Part shown: piece after piece, positions 2 to 63,792 of the stretch
Numbering within the stretch: position 1 is the stretch's first letter
How the letters are laid out: every line of letters starts with the position of its first letter
Source: Mycoplasmatota bacterium WC30
GTDB taxonomy: Bacteria; Bacillota_I; Bacilli_A; Izemoplasmatales; Hujiaoplasmataceae
Direction: 5' to 3'
NCBI GenBank assembly: GCA_046529635.1
Contig: CP134495.1
Span: forward strand, 1,694,556 to 1,758,555
Length of the DNA: 64,000 nucleotides
Made by a program: the position numbers and the translations under genes
Notes under the pieces: generated by a model
Seen by the model: the letters and a program-made list of their open reading frames with translations, nothing else
What the model was told of the DNA's origin: nothing
The model's database searches: none

Positions 2-2359
2 GTGCGAGATTTTGTTAATAAACTATACCACTTGAATGAAAGACAACATGATGGTGAGTTTTTAGTTAATACAAAAAGCAACGAAAAACTTCTTTGGGAT
101 TTTTATTCAACTTACTTAGGTAAAACAAAAGATGGATATAAAATGGCGATGAGCGTTGCGATTGATGTTACTGAAAGACAAAAATTGCTAAATAATTTGA
201 AATATGAACATGATAAATCACAACAGTATTTAGATGTCGCTGGAGTTATGCTCATTGTTCTAGATAATGAAGGAAATATCTCGAATATTAATGAAAAAGG
301 CTGTGAAATTCTTGAAGCAAAGGAAAATGAACTCATAGGAAAAAATTGGTTTGATAACTTTATTTCTGAAGAAATCAGAGACAATATTAAGAAAGTTTTC
401 TCGAATGTATTTAATAAAAGCGAGGACCTAGATTTGCATTTTGAAAATGAAATAATCACAGCTATGGGAAAAAAGAAAATCATAAATTGGTACAACACAG
501 TTATATATGACACAGAAAACAATGTTACTGGGGTTTTATCTTCAGGGGAAGATATTACCGAAAAGAAAGAATATGAAAAAGCTTTATTCGCTAGCAATCA
601 AAGATTTGAAAAGTTATTCGATAAAGCACCATTTGGTTATCAATCTTTAGACATAAATGGTAATTTCATTGAAGTTAATAATACTTGGTTGAATACAATG
701 GGTTATCAAAAAGATGAAGTTATTGGAAAATGGTTTGGTGATTTTTTACCTCAAGCATCTAAAGAGGAGTTCAAAAAAAGATTTAAAATCTTTAAAGAAA
801 AAGGGAAGATTCATTCAACGTTTCAAATGCTTCGTAAAAATGGAGATAAGGTATTAATAGAATTTGAAGGACTTATCGGTTATGATGAAAATCAACAGTT
901 TGCTCAGACATACTGTAATTTGAACGACATCACCAAGCGTAAGGAAATAGAAGAACAATTATTAATGAGTGAGAGTAATCTTAAATTGGCGCAGTCTATT
1001 GCTAAAATTGGTTCATGGGAGATAAATTTGGTTGATGGCTCTATGTGGGCGTCCAAAGAAGCATTTAAAATATATGAAATTGATGAGGAAAGCGGATTTG
1101 TTGATATAACTTCTATTCAAACGATGGTTGATAAGGATGATAGAGAGAAATTAGATATTGCTTTAGAAGAATTAATTAATAACAATAAACCATATGATGT
1201 AGTTTTTAAGCTACACACAAAAGATAGAAATATTAAATATATAAATTCTCGAGCTATTCTATTTACTGACTCAAAAAATAAACCAGTCAAAGTTATTGGT
1301 GTAATTCATGATATTTCAGACTTAAAGTATAAAGAACTTGAATTAGTGCATCTAAGCCAACGAGATTATTTGACAAATTTATATAATAGACGTTACTATT
1401 TTGAACAATTCAAACTGCTGAATAACCCAAGATATTATCCGCTTGGAGTAATGATGTTAGATTTGAATGGACTTAAAATAATTAATGATGCATTTGGTCA
1501 CTCGGCCGGAGATTTTGCATTAAAAACGATAGGAGATGTGTTAAAGGATTCATTTGAAGATAAAGATGTGGTTTCCAGAATTGGTGGAGATGAATTTACA
1601 GTCTTATTACCAAATACCTCATCTGAAAAACTTCAATACTACAAAGAAGAAATTATAAAAATTGTTAAAACAAAGAGTGTTGATAATATTGAATTATCAA
1701 TCGCTATTGGCTATGAATTAAAGAATAACATTAATGAAAAAATTGACGATATTCAAAAGTCAGCTGAAAATCGTATGTATCGACACAAGACAACCGAAGG
1801 ATCAAGTGTACGAAGCAAGGCAATTAATGCTATTTTACATACATTATCTGAGAAATACGAAGCTGAAAGAAGACATTCGAATAAAGTTAGCGAATTATGT
1901 AAAGAAATCGGAATAAAACTTAATTTAAGAGAAGATGAAATTAAAGAACTTGAACAAGCTGGTTTATTTCATGATATCGGAAAGATTTCAATTCCTGATA
2001 GTATTTTGAATAAACCTGGGAAATTGACTTTTGACGAATTTGAAGTTATTAAATCTCATACTGAAGTTGGATACCAAATATTAAGAGCTGCAGATGAGTA
2101 TTCAGATTTAGCTATCCAAGCACTACATCATCATGAAAGATGGGATGGTAAAGGTTATCCAAACGGAATGAAAGGTGAAGAAATCCCACTATTCTCTAGG
2201 ATTATTTGCGTCGTAGATGCCTATGAAGCTATGACAGCTGATAGGCCATATCGAAAAAAATTAAGTAATGAATATGCAAAATCAGAAATCAAAAAATATG
2301 CTGGCACCCAGTTTGATCCGAAGATTTCGAAGATATTCGTTGAACAAGTTCTAGAGTAA
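2..2359 (+). CDS. PAS-GGDEF-HD-GYP multidomain c-di-GMP signalling protein (5' partial; continues upstream of window)
   Basis: The ORF runs to the window edge. It has several PAS-like repeats, a GGDEF motif (RIGGDEF), and an HD-GYP domain (LFHDIGKI ... HHERWDGKGYP). It ends with TAA at 2357-2359. Confidence 0.75.
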   Translation: MRDFVNKLYHLNERQHDGEFLVNTKSNEKLLWDFYSTYLGKTKDGYKMAMSVAIDVTERQKLLNNLKYEHDKSQQYLDVAGVMLIVLDNEGNISNINEKGCEILEAKENELIGKNWFDNFISEEIRDNIKKVFSNVFNKSEDLDLHFENEIITAMGKKKIINWYNTVIYDTENNVTGVLSSGEDITEKKEYEKALFASNQRFEKLFDKAPFGYQSLDINGNFIEVNNTWLNTMGYQKDEVIGKWFGDFLPQASKEEFKKRFKIFKEKGKIHSTFQMLRKNGDKVLIEFEGLIGYDENQQFAQTYCNLNDITKRKEIEEQLLMSESNLKLAQSIAKIGSWEINLVDGSMWASKEAFKIYEIDEESGFVDITSIQTMVDKDDREKLDIALEELINNNKPYDVVFKLHTKDRNIKYINSRAILFTDSKNKPVKVIGVIHDISDLKYKELELVHLSQRDYLTNLYNRRYYFEQFKLLNNPRYYPLGVMMLDLNGLKIINDAFGHSAGDFALKTIGDVLKDSFEDKDVVSRIGGDEFTVLLPNTSSEKLQYYKEEIIKIVKTKSVDNIELSIAIGYELKNNINEKIDDIQKSAENRMYRHKTTEGSSVRSKAINAILHTLSEKYEAERRHSNKVSELCKEIGIKLNLREDEIKELEQAGLFHDIGKISIPDSILNKPGKLTFDEFEVIKSHTEVGYQILRAADEYSDLAIQALHHHERWDGKGYPNGMKGEEIPLFSRIICVVDAYEAMTADRPYRKKLSNEYAKSEIKKYAGTQFDPKISKIFVEQVLE

Positions 2360-47777: not shown

Positions 47778-48656
47778 TTATTTGATGGTTTCATACATAT
47801 TTTCAGCTATGTTAACAATTGAAACTATATATTCCTTTAAACTCTCAAAATCACTTTTAGTTAATTTCTTGATTTTCCTAAATTTATGATAACCATGTAA
47901 AGCAACATGAACATCACCACCTATACCTGATAAGAAAACTGGCATCTTACTAGTGTGTAGTTTTTTATATAAGGTATAGTATTTTTTCGGGATATCTTTA
48001 GTTTGACCTTCTTCAACATATTCTTTGATATCACTATCAAAATTGACTTTGACCATCTTTCTATTTTTTAACCTAGGTCTACCCTTAGATCTTAATTGGA
48101 AAGTATTATCAGGCCTAATACCTAAGATAAAATACAAACCATCGATGTGAATAATAGTTGACTTGTTAACTTGAGTATAAATATACGTATCATAGATGGT
48201 AGTATTGTAGCCACCTTTACTTGTAAAGTTTAGTTTATATCTTAAATATCTACCGTTACCCAAAGGAAATAATCCTCCCTCTACAATAAACTCTTTATCT
48301 TTAAGAAAAGCTTTAATTGAAATATTTGTATTTTGATTTAGATTTATGTCTTCGACAGCTTTTTTATATAGAAAATTAAACAGAGGTTTGTTACTGTGAA
48401 ATACAAAATTCAATATTACTAGGGTTATAATTAATAATCCTGTGATTCCTGAAAGAATATAAAAAGCAATTATAATTCCATTATTGGACAAGTTTGTACC
48501 TAACAAAAAAGCGATAACAGAAACAACTAGAAATGAAACAGTTATAATTGTCATAATTTTCATAGTTTTTTTCTTTTCAATTATTTGTAATTCTTCGTAG
48601 TCGTTTAATATATAATTAAAACCTGTATCATTATAATTTTCCATAATAACCTCCAA
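47778..48656 (-). CDS. hypothetical membrane-anchored protein
   Basis: Two N-terminal TM helices followed by a soluble 200-aa domain. Confidence 0.45.
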   Translation of the reverse strand: MEVIMENYNDTGFNYILNDYEELQIIEKKKTMKIMTIITVSFLVVSVIAFLLGTNLSNNGIIIAFYILSGITGLLIITLVILNFVFHSNKPLFNFLYKKAVEDINLNQNTNISIKAFLKDKEFIVEGGLFPLGNGRYLRYKLNFTSKGGYNTTIYDTYIYTQVNKSTIIHIDGLYFILGIRPDNTFQLRSKGRPRLKNRKMVKVNFDSDIKEYVEEGQTKDIPKKYYTLYKKLHTSKMPVFLSGIGGDVHVALHGYHKFRKIKKLTKSDFESLKEYIVSIVNIAENMYETIK

Positions 48657-49252
48657 TTACATTTATAGTATATCACATGATATTTTATAAACACGGTATC
48701 AATTTTTTTTAAAATTACAATATGTGTAAAAACACAAATACATTTTGTGCTTATATTTTTATATTATCAGAGTTAATATTGATTTAAATCAGTATAACTA
48801 TAATTTCCTACAGAATTATTAAATTTTTTAGTGTATAAATATTTGCTAAACATATGTAAATAAAGTGATATTTTTAAATTATGAATCTGTGTTGTGTTTT
48901 AGAGATCAATACGATATAATAATTAAAAAATAAAAATTTAAATAAAATTGCTGTATTACTTGGATGAAAAGAAAAAAAGCAGATTTTTTGCCTTCTTTAA
49001 AAGTAGATTTAAGCTAATGTTGTTTAAACATAGAAAAAGACAAATTAAAAAATTAATTTATCTTTTACATTTCATTATTTTTTTAGGGTGTTACCTTACT
49101 GAATAATCAATTCAACAATATGAACTTGACTTCATCTGATTGAATTATTACCTAATTGGCAAAATATTTCAAAGTTCAAATTTTAATATGGAAGTGTAGA
49201 TTTATTGTTTTATGATATAATTAATGATATATGTTCTATAATAAAACTATAA

Positions 49253-49603
49253 TTAAAGGATTTCATTTTGAATAAATTCAGGTTCGCCAGAATCTTCAAA
49301 ATCGAAATGTTTATGAATCATAGGTATTCTTGAACGAAGAAGCAAAATATATTCAGGTTCACCAGAGTCTTCAAAATCTAATAATAATATATATTCAGGT
49401 TCGCCAGAGTCTTCAAAATCTAATAATAAAATATATTCAGGTTCGCCAGAATCTTCAAAATCTAATAATAATATATACTCAGGTTCGCCAGAGTCTTCAA
49501 AATCTAAAAGAGCAGTTGTGTTCACTTCGTTAATATCTTGTGCATTAACTGTGAAAAATCCAATTCCAAATAACATAACAAATAATAATATAATTTTTTT
49601 CAT
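49253..49603 (-). CDS. small secreted tandem-repeat protein (4 copies of LLDFEDSGEPEYIL plus one degenerate copy)
   Basis: Signal peptide MKKIILLFVMLFGIGFFTVNA. The 14-aa repeats are encoded by 42-bp tandem repeats. Divergent from the Rgg-like regulator gene. Confidence 0.6.
   Translation of the reverse strand: MKKIILLFVMLFGIGFFTVNAQDINEVNTTALLDFEDSGEPEYILLLDFEDSGEPEYILLLDFEDSGEPEYILLLDFEDSGEPEYILLLRSRIPMIHKHFDFEDSGEPEFIQNEIL
49349..49516. repeat. 42-bp in-frame tandem repeat, 4 near-identical units (plus a degenerate copy at about 49274-49306)
   Basis: Unit atattcaggttcgccagagtcttcaaaatctaataataa(a/t)at recurs with period 42 at 49349, 49391, 49433 and 49475. Confidence 0.9.
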
Positions 49604-49682
49604 TTAATTCACCTCACATATATAATACTTTTTTTGATTTAAGTTATACAGCGCATATATGTCACACTTAAAGGAAAACACT

Positions 49683-50615
49683 ATGAATTCAATGGAGCTT
49701 TGCAACTACCTTGAAAAAATTAGATATGGAAGAAACGTTTCCCAAGAAGAATTTGTTTCTGGGATTGTTTCAATTCGACAATATCAAAGGTATAAAATTG
49801 GAGAAAGTGTTATCCCTTATGACAAAATTGAACAATTTGCTGAAAAACTTGGGTTGAATTCAAAAAAATTATTATCAGAATTTGAAAAAGAGAAAAGTTT
49901 ACAATATACAAAGATTAATGCATTTTACAATGCGGTAGCAAATAATGATTATAAAAATGCAATTCAGCTTAAAGAAAAATTAGACCAGGATCTTATTATT
50001 TCTTCTGAAGGTAAAAAATATTACGAGCATGCAAATATAGTCTACAAGTATTATTCAAGAAAATATACACTAAATGAAGTAATTAATAAAGTTACTGAAC
50101 TAATTAATTATCCCGAAATATTAAAACAACAATATTTTACAGATGTTGAAGTATTGATTTTAAGTTTCTTGCTAAGTGTTTTTATTGGTAAGCAACAAGA
50201 AATGTTACTTAATCGACTAAATTCCATATTTGATTGTTCTGATAATATTATGTCAGGAGATAGTGATTATATATATACATTGATTTTGGTTCGTATTGCG
50301 AAAGTTTTTGGAATCAAGAAAAACTTCCCAAAAGTAATCTATTATTGTGAAATTGGATTAGAAAGAGGAATAGCTCATAAACAATATTATTTGTGGGAAT
50401 ATTTCTTTTATTATAAAGCTTTAGCACATCATGCTTTAGGTCAAAGCGAATTGTTTGACGATGCTCTTCTTAGATGTTTTAACGTGCTTACTATGGAAGG
50501 GAACCATTCTAAAATGGTAAAATTTACTTCATTAATTGAAAAAGATTTTAAAATAAATTTCAGACAACATGTTGTTAATCTAATTATATCACCTGATAAA
50601 AACAAACTTGAATAA
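49683..50615 (+). CDS. RNPP/Rgg-like transcriptional regulator (N-terminal XRE HTH plus C-terminal TPR-like helical domain)
   Basis: HTH in the first 60 aa. Helical repeat domain about 250 aa. Start taken at ATG 49683 after AAAGGA. The six-frame ORF starts at 49659. Confidence 0.55.
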   Translation: MNSMELCNYLEKIRYGRNVSQEEFVSGIVSIRQYQRYKIGESVIPYDKIEQFAEKLGLNSKKLLSEFEKEKSLQYTKINAFYNAVANNDYKNAIQLKEKLDQDLIISSEGKKYYEHANIVYKYYSRKYTLNEVINKVTELINYPEILKQQYFTDVEVLILSFLLSVFIGKQQEMLLNRLNSIFDCSDNIMSGDSDYIYTLILVRIAKVFGIKKNFPKVIYYCEIGLERGIAHKQYYLWEYFFYYKALAHHALGQSELFDDALLRCFNVLTMEGNHSKMVKFTSLIEKDFKINFRQHVVNLIISPDKNKLE

Positions 50616-51087
50616 ATTTTTTTGCTCAAAAGGTTTCCATATCATATGGTTAATTATCTAGGCGATTTGTGAGCTGTATCGATTAATGTCATTTTTTTGG
50701 TATTGGTTTTTTTGCGAATTTATGATAAAATTAAAGGGCATTAAACCCGACTTTGAATAATTTTACAATAATTAGCTTCTAGTTTTACTCGAAATTTAAT
50801 TTAAGGTTAATTTATTTTTTTATCTGTTGGGATACTTATTATACTTATGATATAGAATATTTCTGTAATATTAATGTTATATTTTCGCGGTTTAACGTAA
50901 TTAACTGTCTATTTATACAATATTATAGTCTTTCCATATATTATGAAAAGCTATGATATCGTTTTCATTCTTTTTTTTTATATACCCATTGATTTTGAGG
51001 AATGAATTTTATATAATTAGCTACAAAATTCGTAGCTTTTATACATTTTTTATACATATGTGTTAAGGCACAAGAATAGGAGATTAC

Positions 51088-53367
51088 ATGAAAAATATTT
51101 ACAAACTAATTTTAATGAGCTTTTTGATTTTTGGATTCTTAGGTTGTGGCGAAGAGGTATCAACCACTACAGCAACGACTGCAGTAACAACTGAAGTAAC
51201 AAGTGCAGTTACAACCGTAGCTATTACGACCACTGAAGCGATAACCGAAACGACAGTAGTTACTACAGTTGATCTTGATCCTGTATTTGATGGTGTTCAA
51301 GATGTTTCAGTACTAAAAGGAGATTCTGATTTTGAACTCTTAAGTGGAATCACTGTTACTGACAATGAAGATGGTAATCTGTTTTCAAGTATTAACGTTG
51401 ACGGAGCCGTAAGCATTGATGTTGCTGGGGAGTATCCTATTACTCTAACAGTTACTGATTCAGCCGGCAATGAAGTTACTGTATCTTTTACAGTTACAGT
51501 AGAACTTAGCGAAGACGAAGCAAATGCATTATTAGATGCAGAAGCCATAGTTCTTGACGTTAATGACCTTGTTTTACCAAGTGTTGGTGAAAACGGATCT
51601 AGATTTTATTGGATTACAGACCGTCCAGATGTTATAACTAAAAAAGGTTATATCATTCCACCTGGAATTGGGAGCGGCCCAGTTACAGTTACACTAACTA
51701 CAAAAGTTATTAATGGTTCATTTTCTCAATATTTTGATTTTGAATTAATTGTTCAACCAAATGAAGAACTCACGGGAGAAATCTCTATGAGATCAGTTCC
51801 ATTTGAAGGTACAAGCGAAGAATATGTTGTCGCAGACCAAACTGACGTGCCATTGTATTTTGTAGACAATGGAAATGTACCTTATATTGATGTAGAAACA
51901 TTTTTATATTTAATTGAAGGGGCTATTGAACCAACTATGATTTCATTTACACCAGTAGGTACTGATGGTCTTTTATTGGAATATAGTGTTGATTATGAAG
52001 ATTTTGATGGAAGCACAGTTACAGAAACTTATTCTGGGTATTTAGATTTTACACTAAATACATTTACAGTAAATACATTTAGTTTCTTCGGATCTTACAT
52101 TGCATCAACAACCTCAGATTATGGAGAAGGTTTAAATTATGTAGATGCTGATTATGGTGAACCAAATGAAGTAACTATACCATTAGGTTTTTATAATATT
52201 GATTTATTAATGTATGATGACGGTGCAAATATGAATTATTTAATGCCTTTCCATGTAGCAGATTTACTTTTCGCAGGTGATGTATATTATGATGTATATT
52301 ACAATGGAGATAAATTATGGGGTATTGACACATTTGGACTAAGCGGTGGTGAACCTGAAGATTTAGCTCTTCAAGATCAAATCAGAGTAAGTTCTTATAA
52401 TTCTGAAGACATCCCAGAAGACCTTAGATGGGCAACATATAACTTCTTAGGACTAGCAATGGATTATTTTTATGGATTAAGAGAAACTTATGAAGTAGAT
52501 ACATATTTTGAAATTCTATCTGCACAAGCTGAACTTATGATAGAACCTATGAATGATGTTGATTTCTATTCTGAAGTATTTTATACAGCTTACAATTTAG
52601 ACGATTTACATACATCACACATCTTTACAGGATACTACGAAGAACCTTATAACATGCAAGTTTACTTGAATGACTTAGGATCTAAGACAGTATCATTCTA
52701 TGAAGGATTGTGGGCAATGCAAGACTTACTAGACTTAAAATATGGTTCATATGAAAATCTACCTGATGATACTCTATTAGATGGCGGAAAAACAGCAGTA
52801 TTCTATATAACTGGATTTGATATTGATTCACCAGATAGATTTAAAGAATTTCTTCAAACACTACCAGCTCATACTGAAAATGTTGTTATAGATTTATCAT
52901 ATAATACCGGAGGAAATGTTGGAGCTGTATTAAGAATGTTTGGTTACATGACTGAAGAAACTATTATGTATCATTCTTATAATCCAGCAGATGGATCAAC
53001 AAGCACTTACTATATTGAAAGCGACTATGTTGCTTACGATTTTGATTATTATATTGTTTCTTCAAGTGTTTCATTTAGCGCTGCCAACCTTATGATTTCA
53101 ATGGCTAAAGAACAAGGTATTGCTACTATATTAGGAAAAGACTCTAGTGGTGGAGCATCTTCAATTGGAGTAATCCTTACACCAGACGGATCTGCCTTAA
53201 TGATTAGTACTAATAACGTTCTAGCTACGAGAGTTGGGGATGAAATTAGTGGTTATGAATATTTAAGCGTAGAAGATGGAATAGAAGTTGATTATTTTAT
53301 GTACAATGTTACCAGTGATGATTTGATTGTTTCGTTAATAGAAACTGCCAAAGCAGAGGCTGAATAA
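51088..53367 (+). CDS. lipoprotein with Thr-rich linker, Ig-like domain and C-terminal S41-like peptidase domain
   Basis: Lipobox FLGCG. TTTATTAVTTEVT linker. S41-like motifs VVIDLSYNTGGNV and SSVSFSAAN. Confidence 0.5.
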   Translation: MKNIYKLILMSFLIFGFLGCGEEVSTTTATTAVTTEVTSAVTTVAITTTEAITETTVVTTVDLDPVFDGVQDVSVLKGDSDFELLSGITVTDNEDGNLFSSINVDGAVSIDVAGEYPITLTVTDSAGNEVTVSFTVTVELSEDEANALLDAEAIVLDVNDLVLPSVGENGSRFYWITDRPDVITKKGYIIPPGIGSGPVTVTLTTKVINGSFSQYFDFELIVQPNEELTGEISMRSVPFEGTSEEYVVADQTDVPLYFVDNGNVPYIDVETFLYLIEGAIEPTMISFTPVGTDGLLLEYSVDYEDFDGSTVTETYSGYLDFTLNTFTVNTFSFFGSYIASTTSDYGEGLNYVDADYGEPNEVTIPLGFYNIDLLMYDDGANMNYLMPFHVADLLFAGDVYYDVYYNGDKLWGIDTFGLSGGEPEDLALQDQIRVSSYNSEDIPEDLRWATYNFLGLAMDYFYGLRETYEVDTYFEILSAQAELMIEPMNDVDFYSEVFYTAYNLDDLHTSHIFTGYYEEPYNMQVYLNDLGSKTVSFYEGLWAMQDLLDLKYGSYENLPDDTLLDGGKTAVFYITGFDIDSPDRFKEFLQTLPAHTENVVIDLSYNTGGNVGAVLRMFGYMTEETIMYHSYNPADGSTSTYYIESDYVAYDFDYYIVSSSVSFSAANLMISMAKEQGIATILGKDSSGGASSIGVILTPDGSALMISTNNVLATRVGDEISGYEYLSVEDGIEVDYFMYNVTSDDLIVSLIETAKAEAE

Positions 53368-56570: not shown

Positions 56571-59216
56571 ATGAAAAAAGTTTATTTGTTTCTTGTTACA
56601 CTAGTTTTTGCATTAGCTCTCGTTGCTTGCGGCGGAACTGATACAACAGCTGCAACAACAGCAGCAACAACAGCTGCAACAACAGCAGCAACAACAGCTG
56701 CAACAACAGCTGCAACAACAGCTGTAGTAACTACTACTGAAGCGGCAACAACAACAGCTCAAGAAGTTACTTACGCAACAACTGAAACTACTACTGTATT
56801 AACACCTGTTTATGAAACAAGGGTTGTTAATGACGATTACACATTATTGCTTCAATCGTCAACTATGGATGGAGTATTTAACCCGTTCTTCTCTTCATCT
56901 TCTTATGATAATGATGTTATTGGACTTGTAAATGTAGGTTTAATGACTGTAGATGAAACTGGTGCAGTAGTTGCATCTGATTACTATCCTACAGTTGCAC
57001 AAAGCTATTCAATCTTCTACACAGACGACTTATCAACATATGCTTCAAAAGATTCATATGAAGAAGGCGATTATGTAGTTTATGAAATGGTTATCAAAAA
57101 TGACGCAAAATTTAGTGATGGAACTGCAATCGATGTTGAAGACGTTCTATTTAACTATTATGTATATTTAGATCCTTCTTATAATGGATCATCAACTTTA
57201 TATACTTTACCTATTCTTGGTTTAGCTGATTTTAGATCTCAAGTTCCTGATTCTATCGTATTATCTGCAAAAGTAGATGCTATGTTAGAAGATGATGGAA
57301 GACTTACTGGATATGTTGCAAATGACGTATATACAGAAGCTGAATTTGATGATTTCTGGGCTTATTTCGATGTAAGAGGTGTTGAATTCGCTCAAGAGAT
57401 TGCAGATTATGTTCAAAACGGTTATCTTAACGAAACTTACGTTGTATACTCTGCTTTAGATGCTGGATTTACTGTTGCTGAAATAGCTGCAGATCCTGGA
57501 TTACTTATTGCATTTGGTATGGACATGTGGGGATACGCTGCATCTTTCAATGTAGACTTTACTGAATTAACTGGTTGGTCAGGTATTGTATACACAGTTG
57601 CTGATTTAACTGCTGCAGATTACTGGGCTGAAATTTTAGCTGCTAACACTGTTGACGATAAAATCGACTTTGGTGGAGGTTACCAAGGACTTTCTGATTA
57701 TGAAAGTGCTGGATCTGACTTTGTTGGATTATCAAGAGGAGATTTCCTTTCTGACTACGGCGAAATCGGTAGTGTTCCAACTATTGCTGGTTTAGTAGCA
57801 GGTACAACAACTATAGGTGATGAAGAATTTGAAACACTTAAAGTTATCTTAACTCAACAAAATCCTAAAGCTGTTCTTTCACTTGGAGTAACAGTAGCAC
57901 CAGAACATTATTACAACGCTGGATATTTCCCAACATTTGGTTCTATCGTAAACTACGGTGTTGAATTTGACAATCCTGATTATATGGCTCACTTAGCTTC
58001 TTCAAACGCTGCTCCTATGGGCGCTGGTACTCATGTATTTATGGGAACTGACCCTGGTGATGGCACTGTTTATTTCGAAAGAAATGAATATTTTGAATCA
58101 ATGGGTGGAGTAAATGTTTATAATTCAAATATTAATAACATAGCTCTTAAAATTATTTCTCTTGATGCAGAATATGGTGCATTAGAGGCTGGAGACGTTC
58201 ATTACGCAACAGTTAGTGCTACATCTGACGTTATGGAAGATGTTGCATTAGATGATGATTTAGTAGCTGTATTAGTAGATAACCTAGGTTATGGTTATAT
58301 CTGTATTAACCCACAAGTATATCCTAACTTAAGCGAACGTATTGCATTAACAACTGTATTTGATATGACAAAAGTATTAGATTATTATCCAAATGGATTA
58401 GCTGATTTGATTACTCGTTCAATGTCTCAAGTTTCTTGGGCATATCCTGAAGGTGCAGATTATATTTATCCATTCGACGAAACATTAGCTACCACTATTC
58501 AATACTTTATTGATGCTGGTTATACATTTGATGATCAATTAGGAACTATTGGTGAATTTACTGATACTCCTACATATGACTTTACATTACCTTCTGGGGC
58601 AGCAGCACATCCAGCTGGTGGAGTTTATCTTAGAGCTCAAGAGTTATTAGCTACAATTGGTGTTACAGTAAATATCGTTACAGATACTGATCTTATCGCT
58701 AATATTAAAACTGATCCTGTTGGTGTATATGCATTAGCATGGGGATCAACTCAAGACCCTGACATGTACCAAGTTAACCATTACGAATCTCAAGCAACTT
58801 CTGTAATTTCTAATGGTATCAAATGGTTACATGAAAATGGAAATGATGACGATCTAGGTACTATAGACGTTGTTAAACTTGATGGATCTACAGTAACAAT
58901 GAATCAAACAGCAGCACTTGAATATTTAGGAGAATTAATCGTTCTAGGTACACAATACATGTTGGCTGAAGAAAGAGCTCCAATCTATGCGAAAGCATTA
59001 GAAGTACTTGCTCAATTGAACCTTGAAATTCCAACATACCAAAGAAAGAACTTATTTATCTATAATGGTAGCACTATTGACCAAACAACAATTTCAACAA
59101 TCGTTACTCCTTATTGGGGACCTTTAGCTGAAATATGGAAATTAAGTTTTACTGATTCTGTTGAAGGCAATGAAGACGTAGAAGTAATGGTCGGATATGC
59201 TGAAGACATGAACTAA
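56571..59216 (+). CDS. oppA: oversized oligopeptide-type ABC substrate-binding lipoprotein (SBP family 5)
   Basis: Lipobox LVACGG. A (TTAA)n linker. 881 aa. Immediately upstream of oppBCDF. Confidence 0.65.
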   Translation: MKKVYLFLVTLVFALALVACGGTDTTAATTAATTAATTAATTAATTAATTAVVTTTEAATTTAQEVTYATTETTTVLTPVYETRVVNDDYTLLLQSSTMDGVFNPFFSSSSYDNDVIGLVNVGLMTVDETGAVVASDYYPTVAQSYSIFYTDDLSTYASKDSYEEGDYVVYEMVIKNDAKFSDGTAIDVEDVLFNYYVYLDPSYNGSSTLYTLPILGLADFRSQVPDSIVLSAKVDAMLEDDGRLTGYVANDVYTEAEFDDFWAYFDVRGVEFAQEIADYVQNGYLNETYVVYSALDAGFTVAEIAADPGLLIAFGMDMWGYAASFNVDFTELTGWSGIVYTVADLTAADYWAEILAANTVDDKIDFGGGYQGLSDYESAGSDFVGLSRGDFLSDYGEIGSVPTIAGLVAGTTTIGDEEFETLKVILTQQNPKAVLSLGVTVAPEHYYNAGYFPTFGSIVNYGVEFDNPDYMAHLASSNAAPMGAGTHVFMGTDPGDGTVYFERNEYFESMGGVNVYNSNINNIALKIISLDAEYGALEAGDVHYATVSATSDVMEDVALDDDLVAVLVDNLGYGYICINPQVYPNLSERIALTTVFDMTKVLDYYPNGLADLITRSMSQVSWAYPEGADYIYPFDETLATTIQYFIDAGYTFDDQLGTIGEFTDTPTYDFTLPSGAAAHPAGGVYLRAQELLATIGVTVNIVTDTDLIANIKTDPVGVYALAWGSTQDPDMYQVNHYESQATSVISNGIKWLHENGNDDDLGTIDVVKLDGSTVTMNQTAALEYLGELIVLGTQYMLAEERAPIYAKALEVLAQLNLEIPTYQRKNLFIYNGSTIDQTTISTIVTPYWGPLAEIWKLSFTDSVEGNEDVEVMVGYAEDMN
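56643..56726. repeat. 12-nt tandem repeat (acaacagc[a/t]gca, about 7 copies) encoding the (TTAA)n linker
   Basis: Perfect repeats visible directly in the sequence. Confidence 0.85.
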
Positions 59217-59310
59217 TTTATAACTAAATAATTGAATGATTAAGTTTTACAAATAATAAACAAGGAGTTATAGGGCTCAGTCAATTTGATTGGGCCTTAT
59301 TATTGTTAAA

Positions 59311-60393
59311 ATGATAAAATATGTAATAAAAAGATTTGCACTATCTATACTAATTCTTTTTGGGGTCTCAATGATAATATATGGATTAGTTAGAATTAAA
59401 CCAGGGTTGGATTTTGTACAAGCAAAATTCGCTGTTCAAGAATCATTAGACGATACTGGAGATGTAGCTATAATGATTGAGGAACAAAGAGCAATCTATG
59501 GGCTTACAGAGCCTGTTTTTCAAGGTTACTTGATCTGGTTAAACAATATTTTAAATGGGAACTGGGGAGATTCTTTTATTTTCTCTGTTACTACTGGTGA
59601 ACTAGAATATCTTGAGGATTCGAATGGTGAACCACTTCTGGATGAAGCTGGCGACCAACTTACAAGGCCGGTTGCAAGTTCAAATGTCCTCGATATCATT
59701 GCAGATAAGAGTAGAATATCATTTATTCTTGCATTGATTGCAACAGTTTTACAGTTTCTAATCGCTATTCCACTTGGTATTACATCCGCAACAAAACAAT
59801 ATGGTTTTGTTGATTACTCAGTTACGGTGCTGGCCATGATGGGGATTTCTTTGCCTTCGTTCTTTTTCGGGGCATTGCTATTAAAAATATTTTCGATTCA
59901 GTTAGGTTGGTTCCCGTATGCGGGACTGGTCGACCCGAACTCGAATCTACCCGTGCTTTTAGATAATTTACATCATTTAATCTTGCCTATTAGTGTTTTA
60001 GTTATCCTTTCTATTGGTGGACTAATGCGATATACTCGTACTAATATGCTTGAAGTATTAAATGCAGATTACATTCGTACAGCTCGTGCGAAAGGTTTAA
60101 GTGAACATAAAGTAATTTACAAACATGCTTTTAGAAATACTCTGATTCCACTTGTTACTATTTTCGCTGGGATACTACCAGGATTATTTGGTGGAGCATT
60201 GATTACTGAAACGATTTTTAGTATTGATGGTATTGGACAAGCAGCTTATAGGGCTGTTACTCAAGGAGATATTCCTTTTGTAATGGCATATAATTTATTC
60301 TTGTCATTATTGACTGTCATTGGTACTTTATTATCCGACTTGATGTACGCGGTTGTTGATCCTCGAGTTAGTTTAGTGAGAGGTACAAGATAA
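59311..60393 (+). CDS. oppB: oligopeptide ABC transporter permease
   Basis: N-terminal MIKYVIKRF as in OppB/DppB. 6 TM. The six-frame ORF starts upstream at TTG 59290. Confidence 0.7.
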   Translation: MIKYVIKRFALSILILFGVSMIIYGLVRIKPGLDFVQAKFAVQESLDDTGDVAIMIEEQRAIYGLTEPVFQGYLIWLNNILNGNWGDSFIFSVTTGELEYLEDSNGEPLLDEAGDQLTRPVASSNVLDIIADKSRISFILALIATVLQFLIAIPLGITSATKQYGFVDYSVTVLAMMGISLPSFFFGALLLKIFSIQLGWFPYAGLVDPNSNLPVLLDNLHHLILPISVLVILSIGGLMRYTRTNMLEVLNADYIRTARAKGLSEHKVIYKHAFRNTLIPLVTIFAGILPGLFGGALITETIFSIDGIGQAAYRAVTQGDIPFVMAYNLFLSLLTVIGTLLSDLMYAVVDPRVSLVRGTR

Positions 60394-61502
60394 TGAGTGA
60401 ATTTAAAAATATGAAAGAAAAAGAGAATTTAAATGACATTGATCAAAATGAAAATGTAATTGAATCTTCTGTCAAAGAATTAGCTATAGTCAGTACTGCA
60501 AAAGTAATCAGTCCTGGCAAAATGGTTCTTAGAAGATTTTTCAAAAGCAAATTGTCTTTGATCGGATTAGTAACATTACTATTGTTATTTATATTTTCAT
60601 TTATTGGACCACTAGTATCACCTTATGGTGAAGTAGAAATTACTGGTGATTATAAATGGGTAGTATCAGTACTGCCTCACAAAATTGTTGTTTCTGAAAT
60701 TAATGATGAAACAGGATTAGAAGAAGATGTCGTATATGATTTTTTTGAAGTAAGTGAACCTTACAAAGTATATACAAAAACGTTACCCTCTTGGGAACAC
60801 ATTTTTGGAACCGACCAATACGGTTATGATGTATTTACTAGATTAATGTATGGTGGTCGGGTATCGCTGCTCTTAGGGTTTATTGTTATTTTCTCAGAAG
60901 TTGTAGTAGGCGTATTTTTTGGATCGCTAGCTGGATATTTTGGTCGCTGGGTAGATCAATTAATAATGCGTATTGTTGACGTATTTAACTGTTTACCAGG
61001 ATTACCAATCTTAATGTTAGCATCTGCTTTAATCGATAGTTGGGGGGTACCGGCAAGACTCCGGATTTACTACCTCATGGGGATTCTGACCTTCTTTGGC
61101 TGGGCAGGATTTGCTAGACTATCCCGTGGCCAAATTCTAGGTATACGTGAATTAGAATATATGTTGGCTGCCGAAGCCACAGGTCTTAGTACAAGACGTA
61201 AAATATTTAAACACATTTTGCCAAATATTATGCCACAAATTATAGTTTCAGCTACTTTGGGACTTGGTGGTATTATTCTGACTGAATCTACATTATCATT
61301 TTTAGGTTTAGGTGTTCCTTTCCCATATGCCGCCTGGGGAACTATGATTAGTTCTACTAGTGGTGGTGCAGGTAGAGATATCCTTCAAAACTATCCTGGT
61401 ATTTGGGTTCCTGCGGGTATCTGTATCGTGTTAGCTGTTTTGGCTTTCAATTTTGTTGGCGATGGGCTACGTGATGCTTTTGACCCTAAGATGAAGAGAT
61501 AG
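60393..61502 (+). CDS. oppC: oligopeptide ABC transporter permease
   Basis: Its ATG overlaps the oppB stop. OppC-like topology. Confidence 0.7.
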   Translation: MSEFKNMKEKENLNDIDQNENVIESSVKELAIVSTAKVISPGKMVLRRFFKSKLSLIGLVTLLLLFIFSFIGPLVSPYGEVEITGDYKWVVSVLPHKIVVSEINDETGLEEDVVYDFFEVSEPYKVYTKTLPSWEHIFGTDQYGYDVFTRLMYGGRVSLLLGFIVIFSEVVVGVFFGSLAGYFGRWVDQLIMRIVDVFNCLPGLPILMLASALIDSWGVPARLRIYYLMGILTFFGWAGFARLSRGQILGIRELEYMLAAEATGLSTRRKIFKHILPNIMPQIIVSATLGLGGIILTESTLSFLGLGVPFPYAAWGTMISSTSGGAGRDILQNYPGIWVPAGICIVLAVLAFNFVGDGLRDAFDPKMKR

Positions 61503-61511
61503 GTGAATAAT

Positions 61512-62732
61512 ATGACTAAAATTAAAGAAAGACTTGGAAAAAGCAAACAAAGAAAAAAAGAACTAAATAAACATTATATTAGTTCTAGTGATATTAAAAA
61601 AACTGCAAAAGAAAATCACAAGATTATTCGTGCAATGGAAAAGAAAAACAATCGAAGAAATGTTCCTGAAGAGGAATATCTTACTACTATGAGAGATCCA
61701 AATAACATTGTTGAATTTGATGACCTTCATGCTTTCTTCTATACAGATTCAGGTGTTGTAAAAGCAGTTGATGGTGTATCTTTTGATATACCTAAAAGAT
61801 GTATAGTTGGTGTAGTAGGTGAAAGTGGTTGTGGTAAAAGTGTAACTAGTTTATCATTAATGAAGCTTCTACAAAGCCCTCAAGGGCAAATACACAGTGG
61901 CTCAATTCGTTACGCAGCTAAAGATGGAAAGTGCTATGATATAGCTAATGTTCCAAAAGTCGATATGAATAAGATTCGTGGAAAAGAAATGAGTATGATC
62001 TTCCAAGAACCAATGACCAGCTTAAACCCTGTATTTAGAATTGGTGATCAATTGGATGAAATTTTATTCTTGCATTTCCCAGGAATCACAAAAGAAGAAG
62101 CAAAACAAAAATCTATCGATATGTTAAAACTTGTTAATATAGCAATGCCAGATAAAATCTATAGAGCATATCCACATGAATTATCAGGAGGAATGCGTCA
62201 AAGAGTTGTTATTGCTATGGCATTATCTTGTGATCCTAATTTAATTATCGCAGATGAACCTACAACAGCATTAGATGTTACAATTCAAGCACAAATTCTT
62301 GATTTACTTCGTGACATTAAACTTAAAATTGATGGATCAATTATGTTGATTACACATGATTTAGGTGTTATTGCTGAAATGGCTGACTATGTGGTTGTTA
62401 TGTACGCAGGAAGAATTATAGAAAAAGGAACTGTAAAGGAAATATTTAAAAAACCTATGCATCCTTATACTGTTGGGCTACAAAAGAGTATTCCAGCGTT
62501 GAACCTTAATGCTGAAACGCTTTATACTATTCCAGGTAATGTTCCAAACCCAATTAATTTACCAGATTTTTGTTACTTCCGAGATCGTTGTAATAAAAAA
62601 TTTGATAAATGTGATGGACCATATCCAAAACTAAGTAATATTTCAGGATCTCATAAAGTTGCATGTCATTTATTTACTGAAATGGCTGCAGAATATGAAA
62701 ATAGTAAAGTGGGTGGAAAAAATGGCAAGTAA
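61512..62732 (+). CDS. oppD: oligopeptide ABC transporter ATP-binding protein with 80-aa N-terminal extension
   Basis: Walker A GESGCGKS, signature LSGGMRQRV, and a C-terminal oligopeptide-transporter Cys motif. RBS AGGTG. Confidence 0.8.
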   Translation: MTKIKERLGKSKQRKKELNKHYISSSDIKKTAKENHKIIRAMEKKNNRRNVPEEEYLTTMRDPNNIVEFDDLHAFFYTDSGVVKAVDGVSFDIPKRCIVGVVGESGCGKSVTSLSLMKLLQSPQGQIHSGSIRYAAKDGKCYDIANVPKVDMNKIRGKEMSMIFQEPMTSLNPVFRIGDQLDEILFLHFPGITKEEAKQKSIDMLKLVNIAMPDKIYRAYPHELSGGMRQRVVIAMALSCDPNLIIADEPTTALDVTIQAQILDLLRDIKLKIDGSIMLITHDLGVIAEMADYVVVMYAGRIIEKGTVKEIFKKPMHPYTVGLQKSIPALNLNAETLYTIPGNVPNPINLPDFCYFRDRCNKKFDKCDGPYPKLSNISGSHKVACHLFTEMAAEYENSKVGGKNGK

Positions 62733-63792
62733 TCAAAAAATAGAAAAAGAAAAAACGCCTACTAAAAGCAGTACTGCACAAAAAAATCAACCAAAAGAAC
62801 GTACAAGCAAAGAAGGCTCTGAAAGAGAGATATTAGTTGTAAAAGACTTAAAAAAATATTTTCCTATTGGATCTAGTTGGATTGAAAAAAATAAAAGCTA
62901 TGTTAAGGCAGTAGATGGGGTAAGTTTTTCCATTAAAGAAGGACGAACTCTTGGTGTTGTAGGCGAAAGTGGTTGTGGTAAAACTACACTTGGACGAACA
63001 ATATTAAGACTGTATAACATAACAGGTGGATCTGTAATCTATAATGATATAGACATTCGTAAAATATCAAGAAAAGAATTAACTAGACTTAGACCAAAAA
63101 TCCAAATTATATTTCAAGATCCATATTCAAGTTTGAGCCCTCGTATGACAATTGGGGAAATTATTGGTGAGGCAGTTAGAGAACACAAAATTGTACCACC
63201 ATCAGAATTCCGTGATTATATTTCTGGTGTAATGGAATCTTGTGGGTTACCACCGTATTATTACAGCCGTTACCCTCATGAATTCTCAGGCGGACAAAGA
63301 CAAAGAATATGTATTGCAAGGGCGTTAGCTCTAAAACCGGACCTAATTGTTTGTGACGAACCAGTAAGTGCTCTTGATGTTTCTATTCAAGCACAAATTA
63401 TCAATTTACTAGTAGAGTTACAGAAAAAGTTTGGGATTACATATATATTTATCTCACATGATTTATCAGTTGTTGAATACATTTCAGATGAAATTATGGT
63501 TATGTATTTAGGTAGTGTAGTGGAACAAGGAAATAGAGAACAAATTTTTGAAAATCCAATGCACCCATATACAAACGCTCTTTTGTCAGCTATACCAATT
63601 CCTGACCCTGAAGCGAAAACAACCCGTATAATTTTAGAAGGAGATATTCCAAGTCCTGCAAATCCACCAAAAGGTTGTAAATTCCATACTAGATGTTCAA
63701 AATGTATGGAGATATGTAAGACAGTTGATCCGAAATTAAAAGAATATGAGAGTGGACATCAAGTAGCGTGTCATTTGTTTTCTCAAGAATAG
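62722..63792 (+). CDS. oppF: oligopeptide ABC transporter ATP-binding protein
   Basis: Walker [10 protein letters not shown], signature [12 protein letters not shown] 62722 follows GGGTGG and overlaps the oppD end. Confidence 0.8.

Follow-up and report, generated by a model that had tools for sequence, protein, structure and literature searches.

Here we describe a divergent gene pair in a 64,000-nucleotide stretch of the Mycoplasmatota bacterium WC30 genome (contig CP134495.1, positions 1,694,556 to 1,758,555; hereafter the window), which consists of a 310-residue regulator with a helix-turn-helix (HTH) and a TPR-like domain (49683..50615, + strand) and a 116-residue secreted precursor containing tandem acidic peptide units (49253..49603, - strand). 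We judge it likely that the two genes constitute a cognate receptor-pheromone module, that is, peptide quorum sensing of the RRNPPA type (PlcR/ComR-like) in a wall-less marine Izemoplasmatales bacterium. We are somewhat less sure that the regulator would act by activation, as opposed to relief of repression, and that every unit of the precursor would be released.

The precursor is defined by its open reading frame and translation and by a divergent orthologue in approximately 45 loci. Translation of 49253-49603(-) gives, in order, MKKIILLFVMLFGIGFFTVNA, QDINEVNTTA, four copies of LLDFEDSGEPEYIL, LLRSRIPMIHKH, FDFEDSGEPEFI, and QNEIL. Codons 1–21 (49541..49603, -) read as a Sec-type signal peptide composed of MKK, a 16-residue hydrophobic core, and a cleavage site between VNA and Q that was placed by the -3/-1 rule; the signal peptide contains no cysteine, so the product is not a lipoprotein. 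A ten-residue pro-region leads to the tandem array of four LLDFEDSGEPEYIL units (codons 32–87; 49343..49510, -), which has a 42-bp DNA period and was also detected by Tandem Repeats Finder (49347-49507, period 42 bp, 3.8 copies, 94% matches, score 294). Behind the basic linker LLRSRIPMIHKH lies the variant terminal unit FDFEDSGEPEFI (codons 100–111; 49271..49306, -), a copy that is retained in relatives, and a five-residue tail closes the protein. The four array units differ from one another at six codons, and because all of these differences are synonymous, their identity at the peptide level reflects selection beyond mere recent duplication. The original prediction of a secreted divergent partner with four perfect copies and one variant was thus confirmed by translation, by the repeat analysis, and by the synonymous-only differences. 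The motif occurs nowhere else in the window in any frame, and the precursor matched no Pfam or NCBIfam family, with the repeat unit (residues 44–57) giving a weak match to phrog_16550, a 59-aa profile of unknown function (E 1.6e-6, no stretch passing alone). An anchor motif, a lipobox, a transmembrane tail, and cysteine are all absent from the window protein. A precursor of a ribosomally synthesized and post-translationally modified peptide or bacteriocin was also considered and was rejected on the grounds that a modifying enzyme and a dedicated exporter are absent nearby, the leader is of the Sec type, and the units mostly lack cysteine.

The regulator carries an XRE-type HTH (approximately residues 1–70) followed by a TPR-like helical repeat domain (approximately residues 75–305). 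Its open reading frame opens with an ATG at 49659, which would give 318 aa and lies inside a conserved DNA box described below; the true start is most likely the ATG at 49683 (MNSMELCNY...), which has AGGAAA ahead of it, because approximately 100 homologues are 302–318 aa long and mostly begin with MNSMEL. Therefore, the location originally predicted for the gene pair stands, the regulator has most likely 310 rather than 311 residues, and the shared divergent region measures 79 bp instead of the 55 bp first given. Profile searches of the regulator against Pfam and NCBIfam found no Rgg, PlcR, or TPR family (Rgg-type none at E up to 1), and across all libraries, PHROGs and PADLOC included, nothing emerged beyond two matches under the cut-off, to HTH_19 (E 4.6e-4) and to RapH_N (E 1.2e-3 over 29 residues); PF12844 is precomputed for many homologues. 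When a profile of 42 homologues was searched against PDB sequences, only the HTH domains of ComR (E 0.0015), Rgg2 (0.002), and PrgX (0.022) were matched. An AlphaFold (AF2) model built on the homologue alignment (pLDDT 89.6, pTM 0.79) is all-helical, with a five-helix HTH and then approximately 12 repeat helices, and the best 50 Foldseek matches in the PDB were all RRNPPA-type regulators or close structural relatives (PlcR, ComR, PrgX, Rgg2/3, one NrpR entry, and Lmo0325). Both parts of an RRNPPA receptor are thus present, namely an XRE-type N-terminal HTH (the AF2 five-helix domain, HTH_19, and the ComR, Rgg2, and PrgX HTH matches) and a C-terminal TPR-like superhelical domain of the PlcR/ComR/Rgg/PrgX type. 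The model indicates that the regulator has the RRNPPA receptor fold, yet by sequence it falls in none of the named subfamilies, whose profiles gave no significant match; the RNPP-type HTH-TPR fold proposed earlier for the regulator was therefore borne out by the model and the Foldseek matches.

Compared with its closest relative, the regulator gene shows 96 synonymous and 13 non-synonymous codon differences and is under strong purifying selection. Among the homologues, the mean major-residue frequency is 0.72 in the HTH and 0.57 in the TPR part, as would follow from fixed DNA recognition combined with a diversifying ligand specificity. Recent horizontal transfer of the regulator, which is 96% identical to that of locus L006 where neighbouring proteins are 59–83% identical, was rejected in view of a DNA identity of only 87%, the 96 to 13 ratio, and the strong purifying selection. 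An exhaustive profile search recovered 137 clusters (50% identity) at E up to 1e-30 and 324 at E up to 1e-10, and the named members of the family all come from Izemoplasmatales (an order within class Mollicutes in the NCBI taxonomy), ‘Tenericutes’, Mariniplasma, Acholeplasmataceae, or Liberiplasma. The viral contigs that were scanned held no relative of the regulator and thus gave no sign of a phage-borne module.

To follow the pair across relatives, one genome per species was scanned and 60 regulator loci were recovered. The divergent regulator-precursor arrangement is conserved in approximately 45 loci of Izemoplasmatales, Mariniplasma, Acholeplasmataceae, and Liberiplasma, and because the same arrangement recurs in so many independent loci, chance is excluded. 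A small divergent gene with a signal-peptide-like N-terminus lies 76–150 bp from the regulator in essentially every locus with sufficient upstream sequence, and 41/42 precursor orthologues passed a simple test for a charged N-terminus and a hydrophobic core. These precursors occur in two forms. In 14 loci the precursor is 41–59 aa long and bears a single motif at its extreme C-terminus (e.g., ...LVDFEDSGEPEYIAR, ...VDFDNSGDPEYVAR, and ...MDFDNSGEPEWITR), a layout shared with the PapR, NprX, Phr, and AimP propeptides. In the other 28 loci it carries an array of 2–11 directly abutting units with a period of mostly 13–14 aa. Arrays are no metagenome artefact, because they are carried by isolate or complete genomes, namely Izemoplasma sp. 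B36 (6+1 units), strain zrk7 (6), strain zrk2 (4), and Liberiplasma polymorphum (4). The closest relatives of the window, whose regulators are 96% identical, have three or five copies where the window has four. From the peptide side, two homologues were checked and both adjoin a regulator gene or fragment: one lies next to a regulator homologue (42% identity), and the other next to a truncated divergent gene, with a homologue of the 91-aa protein introduced below as the next gene. A remote family member, L068 (E 3e-30), has a divergent 44-aa secreted peptide that contains DFPPELP and ends in ...NDFPPELPIPPQN. Conservation of the pair and variation in repeat number were thus found as anticipated, and the proposed reading of the partner as a multi-copy pheromone precursor gained support from its conservation with the regulator, in single-copy and 2–11-copy forms, through a radiation of order rank and from purifying selection on each copy. 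In locus L052, two tandem single-copy propeptide genes, 336-461(-) and 194-319(-), both ending in ...YVDFDDIDLPEVVVV, stand in place of an internal array; this gene duplication is an alternative route to a higher pheromone dosage.

The units themselves retain the pattern [LVMG][DG]F...PE[YFW][VI] around centres that are specific to lineages (SGE, PEDL, EETL, LED, KEE, EDDW, RDE, NSGT, and DDL). Codon variants between the units of 25 arrays amount to 192 synonymous vs. 29 non-synonymous, and purifying selection thus acts on every copy within the arrays. The motif centre diverges along with the regulator while F...PE[YFW][VI] stays constant; a formal test of covariation between the two would be confounded by shared phylogeny. 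In the window’s clade, the last copy always lies behind an irregular basic linker and reads ...DFEDSGEPEF..., and it persists in relatives with altered array units, namely DFADSGEPEY in L007 and P0106 and DFDDCGEPEY in Izemoplasma sp. B36 (L013). The Mariniplasma clade shows the same two-tier design with other sequences (array LDFANSGTPEx, terminal GFHNSDLPxHVE). The conserved terminal variant may be a second signal whose affinity differs from that of the array peptides, or an antagonist.

Alignment of the intergenic regions revealed a conserved box, tACAGCGCATATATGTCACA, that lies 16 nt upstream of the regulator ATG (49647..49666, +) and is a candidate operator. The family consensus of this 20-bp box is AACAGCGCRNATATGTCGTA; the box is conserved in 38–42 loci, and eight of its positions never vary among 38 aligned loci, even though identity between the regulators of these loci is only 27–96%. 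It is the sole such site in the 64 kb of the window, both by pattern search (one match vs. 0.16 expected) and with a position weight matrix (PWM), which gave 28.9 bits at this box and no other match above 12. On the precursor strand, the ribosome-binding site GAGGTG (49610..49615, -) was read from the sequence 6 nt before the ATG, and CCTC/CTCC is conserved at this position in the aligned regions. The -10 hexamer of the propeptide promoter, TATTAT (49622..49627, -), has no usable -35 and was recognized as a TAnnAT at a fixed offset from the box, a pattern found in 41/42 loci (T1 in 41, A2 in 42, A5 in 35, and T6 in 41); the mean -10 match at this offset is 4.64 of 6, compared to at most 3.24 at other offsets. 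A consensus scan found no complete sigma-70 promoter on the - strand at the precursor, and a promoter and terminator scan of the window performed at chance level (24 found vs. 23.1 expected) and found no terminator. The distances from the box to the regulator ATG (25–72 nt) and from the -10 to the precursor ATG (18–45 nt) are variable. If transcription starts approximately 7 nt past the hexamer, the box would span approximately -32 to -51 of the precursor promoter, in place of the absent -35, and this predicted position is that of an activator site of the class-II type.

When the box matrix was run over all loci, a second, inverted box emerged 40–110 nt past the regulator stop codon in 43 loci (20–38 bits; L005, L008-L040, L046, L050, L052, L054-L058, and L060-L065; e.g., L025:4974-4995(-) and L013:5019-5040(-)). 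A near-consensus TATAAT directed away from the regulator follows this box (mean match 4.70 vs. at most 3.63 elsewhere), so that in most relatives the regulator gene is flanked by two outward-facing promoters with a box. In both arms the -10 lies at a fixed 18 nt from the 22-mer, or 19 nt for seven loci of the right arm, and it faces outward from a box whose orientation relative to it does not differ between the arms; activation of the precursor promoter is therefore favoured. In 32 loci, the gene behind the second box encodes a (PAS-)GGDEF-EAL or EAL-only protein, and in strain zrk2 an HD-GYP-type protein. Because three different domain solutions for the hydrolysis of cyclic di-GMP (c-di-GMP) occupy the same regulatory position, these genes argue that c-di-GMP turnover is the conserved output of the family. 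On the other side, a 91-aa gene (p91; 89–94 aa) is located 25–40 nt behind the precursor on the same strand in 25 loci (e.g., L025:3427-3702(-)) and is probably co-transcribed with the pheromone gene. It is predicted with confidence to form a four-helix bundle and shares homology with SpbK, a TIR defence protein, over that protein’s N-terminal domain (PADLOC spbK, E 1.9e-17; PDB 9phb, E 1.2e-6), but has no TIR domain; Foldseek gave no significant fold match for the p91 model, and the SpbK link comes from sequence methods only. SpbK’s N-terminal domain binds a phage portal protein (PMC12847820). In L008-L014, an extra near-perfect palindrome, CGACATAATATGTCG, is found just past the right-arm -10 (e.g., L009:1905-1925) and reuses the ATATGTCG half of the box; it sits at about the point where the GGDEF-EAL transcript is predicted to begin and could act as a further site, of the repressor type.

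Following the RRNPPA paradigm (PMC11343458), we propose that the 116-aa precursor is exported by Sec, that its signal peptide is removed after VNA, and that extracellular proteases would then cut at the hydrophobic unit junctions, between EYIL and LLDF. Each precursor could thereby yield one variant peptide, DFEDSGEPEF, in addition to as many as four acidic peptides that are identical and have DFEDSGEPEY(I) as their core. These peptides would be re-imported, most likely via the Opp permease encoded 6 kb away, and would be bound by the 310-aa HTH regulator in its TPR-like domain. The loaded regulator is envisaged to bind the box at 49647-49666 and to activate transcription of the precursor, giving a positive feedback loop; in most relatives, the same regulator would also drive p91 (with the precursor) and, through the second inverted box, the c-di-GMP phosphodiesterase-type gene.

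Several observations weigh against this proposal and bear on its alternatives. The conserved unit, at 12–14 strongly acidic residues, is longer than and unlike the 5–10-residue pheromones described so far (PMC11343458); sequence likeness to known RRNPPA members is limited to the HTH (E 0.0015–0.02), with no significant TPR or Rgg profile; and no processing protease for the propeptide was identified. Copy numbers from short-read metagenome-assembled genomes are uncertain and possibly collapsed, as N runs inside the arrays of L012, L014, L015, L041, L043, and L045 indicate, and the very close relatives P0114 and P0105, with one and four copies, respectively, show that such numbers are unreliable. 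The regulator homologues L038 (3986-4933) and L057 (4001-4912) have no recognisable propeptide gene. The orphan regulator of L038 lacks a box and immediately follows genes for an Opp-type ATPase and a small membrane protein, and that of L057 keeps both boxes where the peptide open reading frame is absent. Dimeric binding is usual among RRNPPA regulators, yet the box is not clearly palindromic, and besides the precursor promoter no target was visible in a PWM scan of the window. Finally, the + strand reads TATAAT at 49621-49626, shifted by one nucleotide from the precursor -10 (mean match 4.17 vs. 4.64), and the box may also, or instead, lie in the regulator’s own leader.

The last point underlies an unlikely alternative, in which the regulator is a repressor released by peptide in the manner of PrgX or AimR and the box is mainly an operator in the regulator’s own promoter or leader. 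The + strand TATAAT would place the box at approximately +14 to +33 of the regulator transcript, and the palindrome CGACATAATATGTCG of L008-L014, just after the right-arm -10, is also in a repressor-like position. On the other hand, box orientation and the 18-nt distance to an outward-facing -10 are shared by the two arms, of which the right one is not followed by a regulator gene, and both promoters lack a -35. Such a geometry is typical of class-II-type activation; the repressor and activator modes are not mutually exclusive. It is rather less probable that the regulator senses another ligand, or none, and that the repeat peptide is merely a regulated product (an exported signal, a chelator, or nutrient-related) outside any feedback. 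The box geometry indicates only probable control of the precursor promoter by a factor binding there, the D/E-rich units could bind cations, and no output genes are visible in the window; against this, the fold is that of peptide-binding RRNPPA receptors, the partner has the RRNPPA propeptide layout with single-copy C-terminal forms included, divergence of the motif centre goes hand in hand with that of the TPR part, the less conserved one, and strict one-to-one adjacency in approximately 45 loci is a hallmark of cognate receptor-pheromone pairs (PMC10075063). Least of all do we expect the partner to function in uncleaved form as an acidic, structural repeat protein that binds Ca or is associated with the surface, the alternative which the original prediction had named. 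The window protein is, at 116 aa, repetitive and D/E-rich, and arrays reach 11 units; however, 14 orthologous partners of 41–59 aa carry one C-terminal motif only, the window protein has no anchor, lipobox, transmembrane tail, or cysteine in what is a wall-less host, and units that abut without spacers and vary from 1 to 11 between close relatives are hard to fit to a folded unit. A cognate receptor-pheromone pair accordingly remains our preferred interpretation.

Within the family, the window and its two nearest relatives (L006 and L007) have only the first box and the precursor, with the 91-aa gene and the second box absent; the Mariniplasma clade and strain zrk7 likewise have only the first box. 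A possible, weak decayed relic of the inverted second box, ATACAGCTCACAAATCGCCTAG (50658..50679, -), was located with the PWM; its 6.0 bits are the best score in 50616-51087, at the position of box 2 in relatives, and could be due to chance. Apart from this candidate, no further boxes, paralogues, or p91 remnants were found in the window. The window version is thus a reduced form, a predicted autoinduction loop from which the p91 and EAL outputs have been lost in this lineage and whose output genes may lie elsewhere. The place of the EAL gene, 472 bp downstream of the regulator, is taken by a 759-aa lipoprotein (lipobox FLGC; Ig-like domains and Peptidase_S41; 51088-53367, +) that is syntenic only in the window’s clade (L001-L007); it is conceivably a propeptide-processing protease and has no link to the box.

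Further downstream lies an Opp-type oligopeptide ATP-binding cassette (ABC) importer (56571..63792, +), a complete oppABCDF-like operon 6 kb from the pair that encodes an OppA-like protein of 881 aa, OppB, OppC, OppD, and OppF (Pfam SBP_bac_5, two BPD_transp_1, OppC_N, and two ABC_tran + oligo_HPY). The permease on which RRNPPA systems rely is therefore present, and it could be the route of peptide re-entry. The OppA-like protein (56571-59216, +) is unusually long, with SBP_bac_5 matching only residues 422–739, and a 635-aa protein with a Listeria-Bacteroides repeat is encoded ahead of it. Relative to L006 and L007, a 292-aa protein with two transmembrane segments (47778-48656, -) and approximately 600 bp of non-coding DNA (48657-49252) are inserted between the methyltransferase and propeptide genes; weak homologues of this protein are found a few kilobases from the regulator in L057 and L058 (zrk2). 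At the window edge, a PAS-PAS-GGDEF-HD-GYP protein (2-2359, +) has no associated box, and because this gene is present, the organism has c-di-GMP signalling. No RNA genes emerged when the window was scanned with Rfam and for tRNAs.

If confirmed, these findings would add the wall-less Mycoplasmatota that live in marine sediments and anaerobic digesters to the range of RRNPPA peptide signalling. The branch is probably overlooked by profile-based surveys: its receptor is matched by no TPR profile, and many of its precursors are longer than the 100 aa allowed by RRNPP_detector (PMC10075063). A natural series of 1 to 11 pheromone copies, often with a conserved deviant, makes the purpose of pheromone duplication, an open question (PMC11343458), testable, and the series occurs in isolate genomes (Liberiplasma polymorphum, Izemoplasma sp. 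B36, and strains zrk2 and zrk7). The architecture of flanking boxes, moreover, predicts a simple regulon joining peptide sensing to c-di-GMP turnover. A bolder synthesis, which we put forward tentatively and would not expect to hold in full, is that class Mollicutes here has its first peptide quorum-sensing system, and that the family is an RRNPPA subfamily of its own, for which tandem pheromone amplification (1 to 11 copies) is normal, with a two-signal design that recurs independently in the window’s clade and in Mariniplasma, with c-di-GMP breakdown and a stand-alone SpbK-N homologue as ancestral outputs, and with only the autoinduction loop kept in the window lineage. If true, such ancestral outputs would couple c-di-GMP signalling, and possibly phage defence as well, to cell density.

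Compared to the systems described to date, the precursor architecture has clear precedents. For Rap, NprR, PlcR, and AimR, as many as six identical copies per propeptide have been described, in some cases accompanied by a deviant one, and maturation has been worked out in detail for two duplicated Phr propeptides (PMC9765709, PMC11343458). The original view that the partner in known RNPP systems is one short peptide gene is therefore out of date (PMC9765709, PMC11343458), and the polyprotein-style pheromone precursor, although right for this locus, is not new in principle. Duplicated propeptides are recognized by at least two identical or near-identical copies and an optional deviant, and the window has four copies and one variant, as the 28 array loci have 2–11. 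As in Rap-Phr, NprR-NprX, and AimR-AimP (e.g., Phr3T and Phr105), several identical copies are sometimes joined by one deviant; release occurs by extracellular proteolysis there and is proposed here. In the Rap, NprR, and AimR families, however, duplication is exceptional (6.7% of atypically large propeptides) and the copies lie within spacer sequence (PMC9765709), whereas here arrays are found in 28/42 loci, with directly abutting units and up to 11 copies. Rap proteins, moreover, lack an HTH and have an N-terminal three-helix bundle that binds response regulators; the present regulator has an HTH and is thus no member of the Rap/Phr class.

With PlcR-PapR of the Bacillus cereus group there is no detectable sequence similarity beyond the HTH, and the family profile gave no PlcR match at E up to 1 against PDB sequences, which places the regulator outside the PlcR/PapR subfamily. 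The genes are in tandem there and divergent here, where the unit is 12–14 aa long and very acidic, arrays are the majority state, and the host is wall-less and of the class Mollicutes. The PlcR box is the palindrome TATGNAN4TNCATA, unlike the asymmetric box found here (AACAGCGCRNATATGTCGTA). In the streptococcal ComR-ComS (XIP) and Rgg-SHP systems, ComS and SHP are short, hydrophobic peptides that lack a Sec signal and are exported by PptAB, whereas the partner here combines a Sec-type signal with an acidic motif; this signal peptide and the lack of any Rgg C-terminal profile match set the pair apart from the Rgg/SHP subfamily. No duplications were recorded in ComS or SHP (0/394 and 0/658; PMC9765709).

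The large RRNPP(A) surveys examined make no mention of Tenericutes, Mollicutes, Acholeplasma, or Izemoplasma, and the literature searched held nothing relevant on RRNPP or quorum sensing with Izemoplasma, although its coverage was incomplete and a prior description is possible. The closest known relatives are PlcR and ComR by structure and the tandemly duplicated Rap, NprR, PlcR, and AimR propeptides by precursor architecture. What is new is a receptor branch that is undetectable by current sequence profiles, an acidic unit of 12–14 residues, spacerless arrays of up to 11 copies as the majority state, a distinctive asymmetric box present in inverted copies on either side of the receptor gene, c-di-GMP and SpbK-N-like outputs, and wall-less hosts of the class Mollicutes. 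The pair belongs to a large, apparently undescribed branch of the RRNPPA family.

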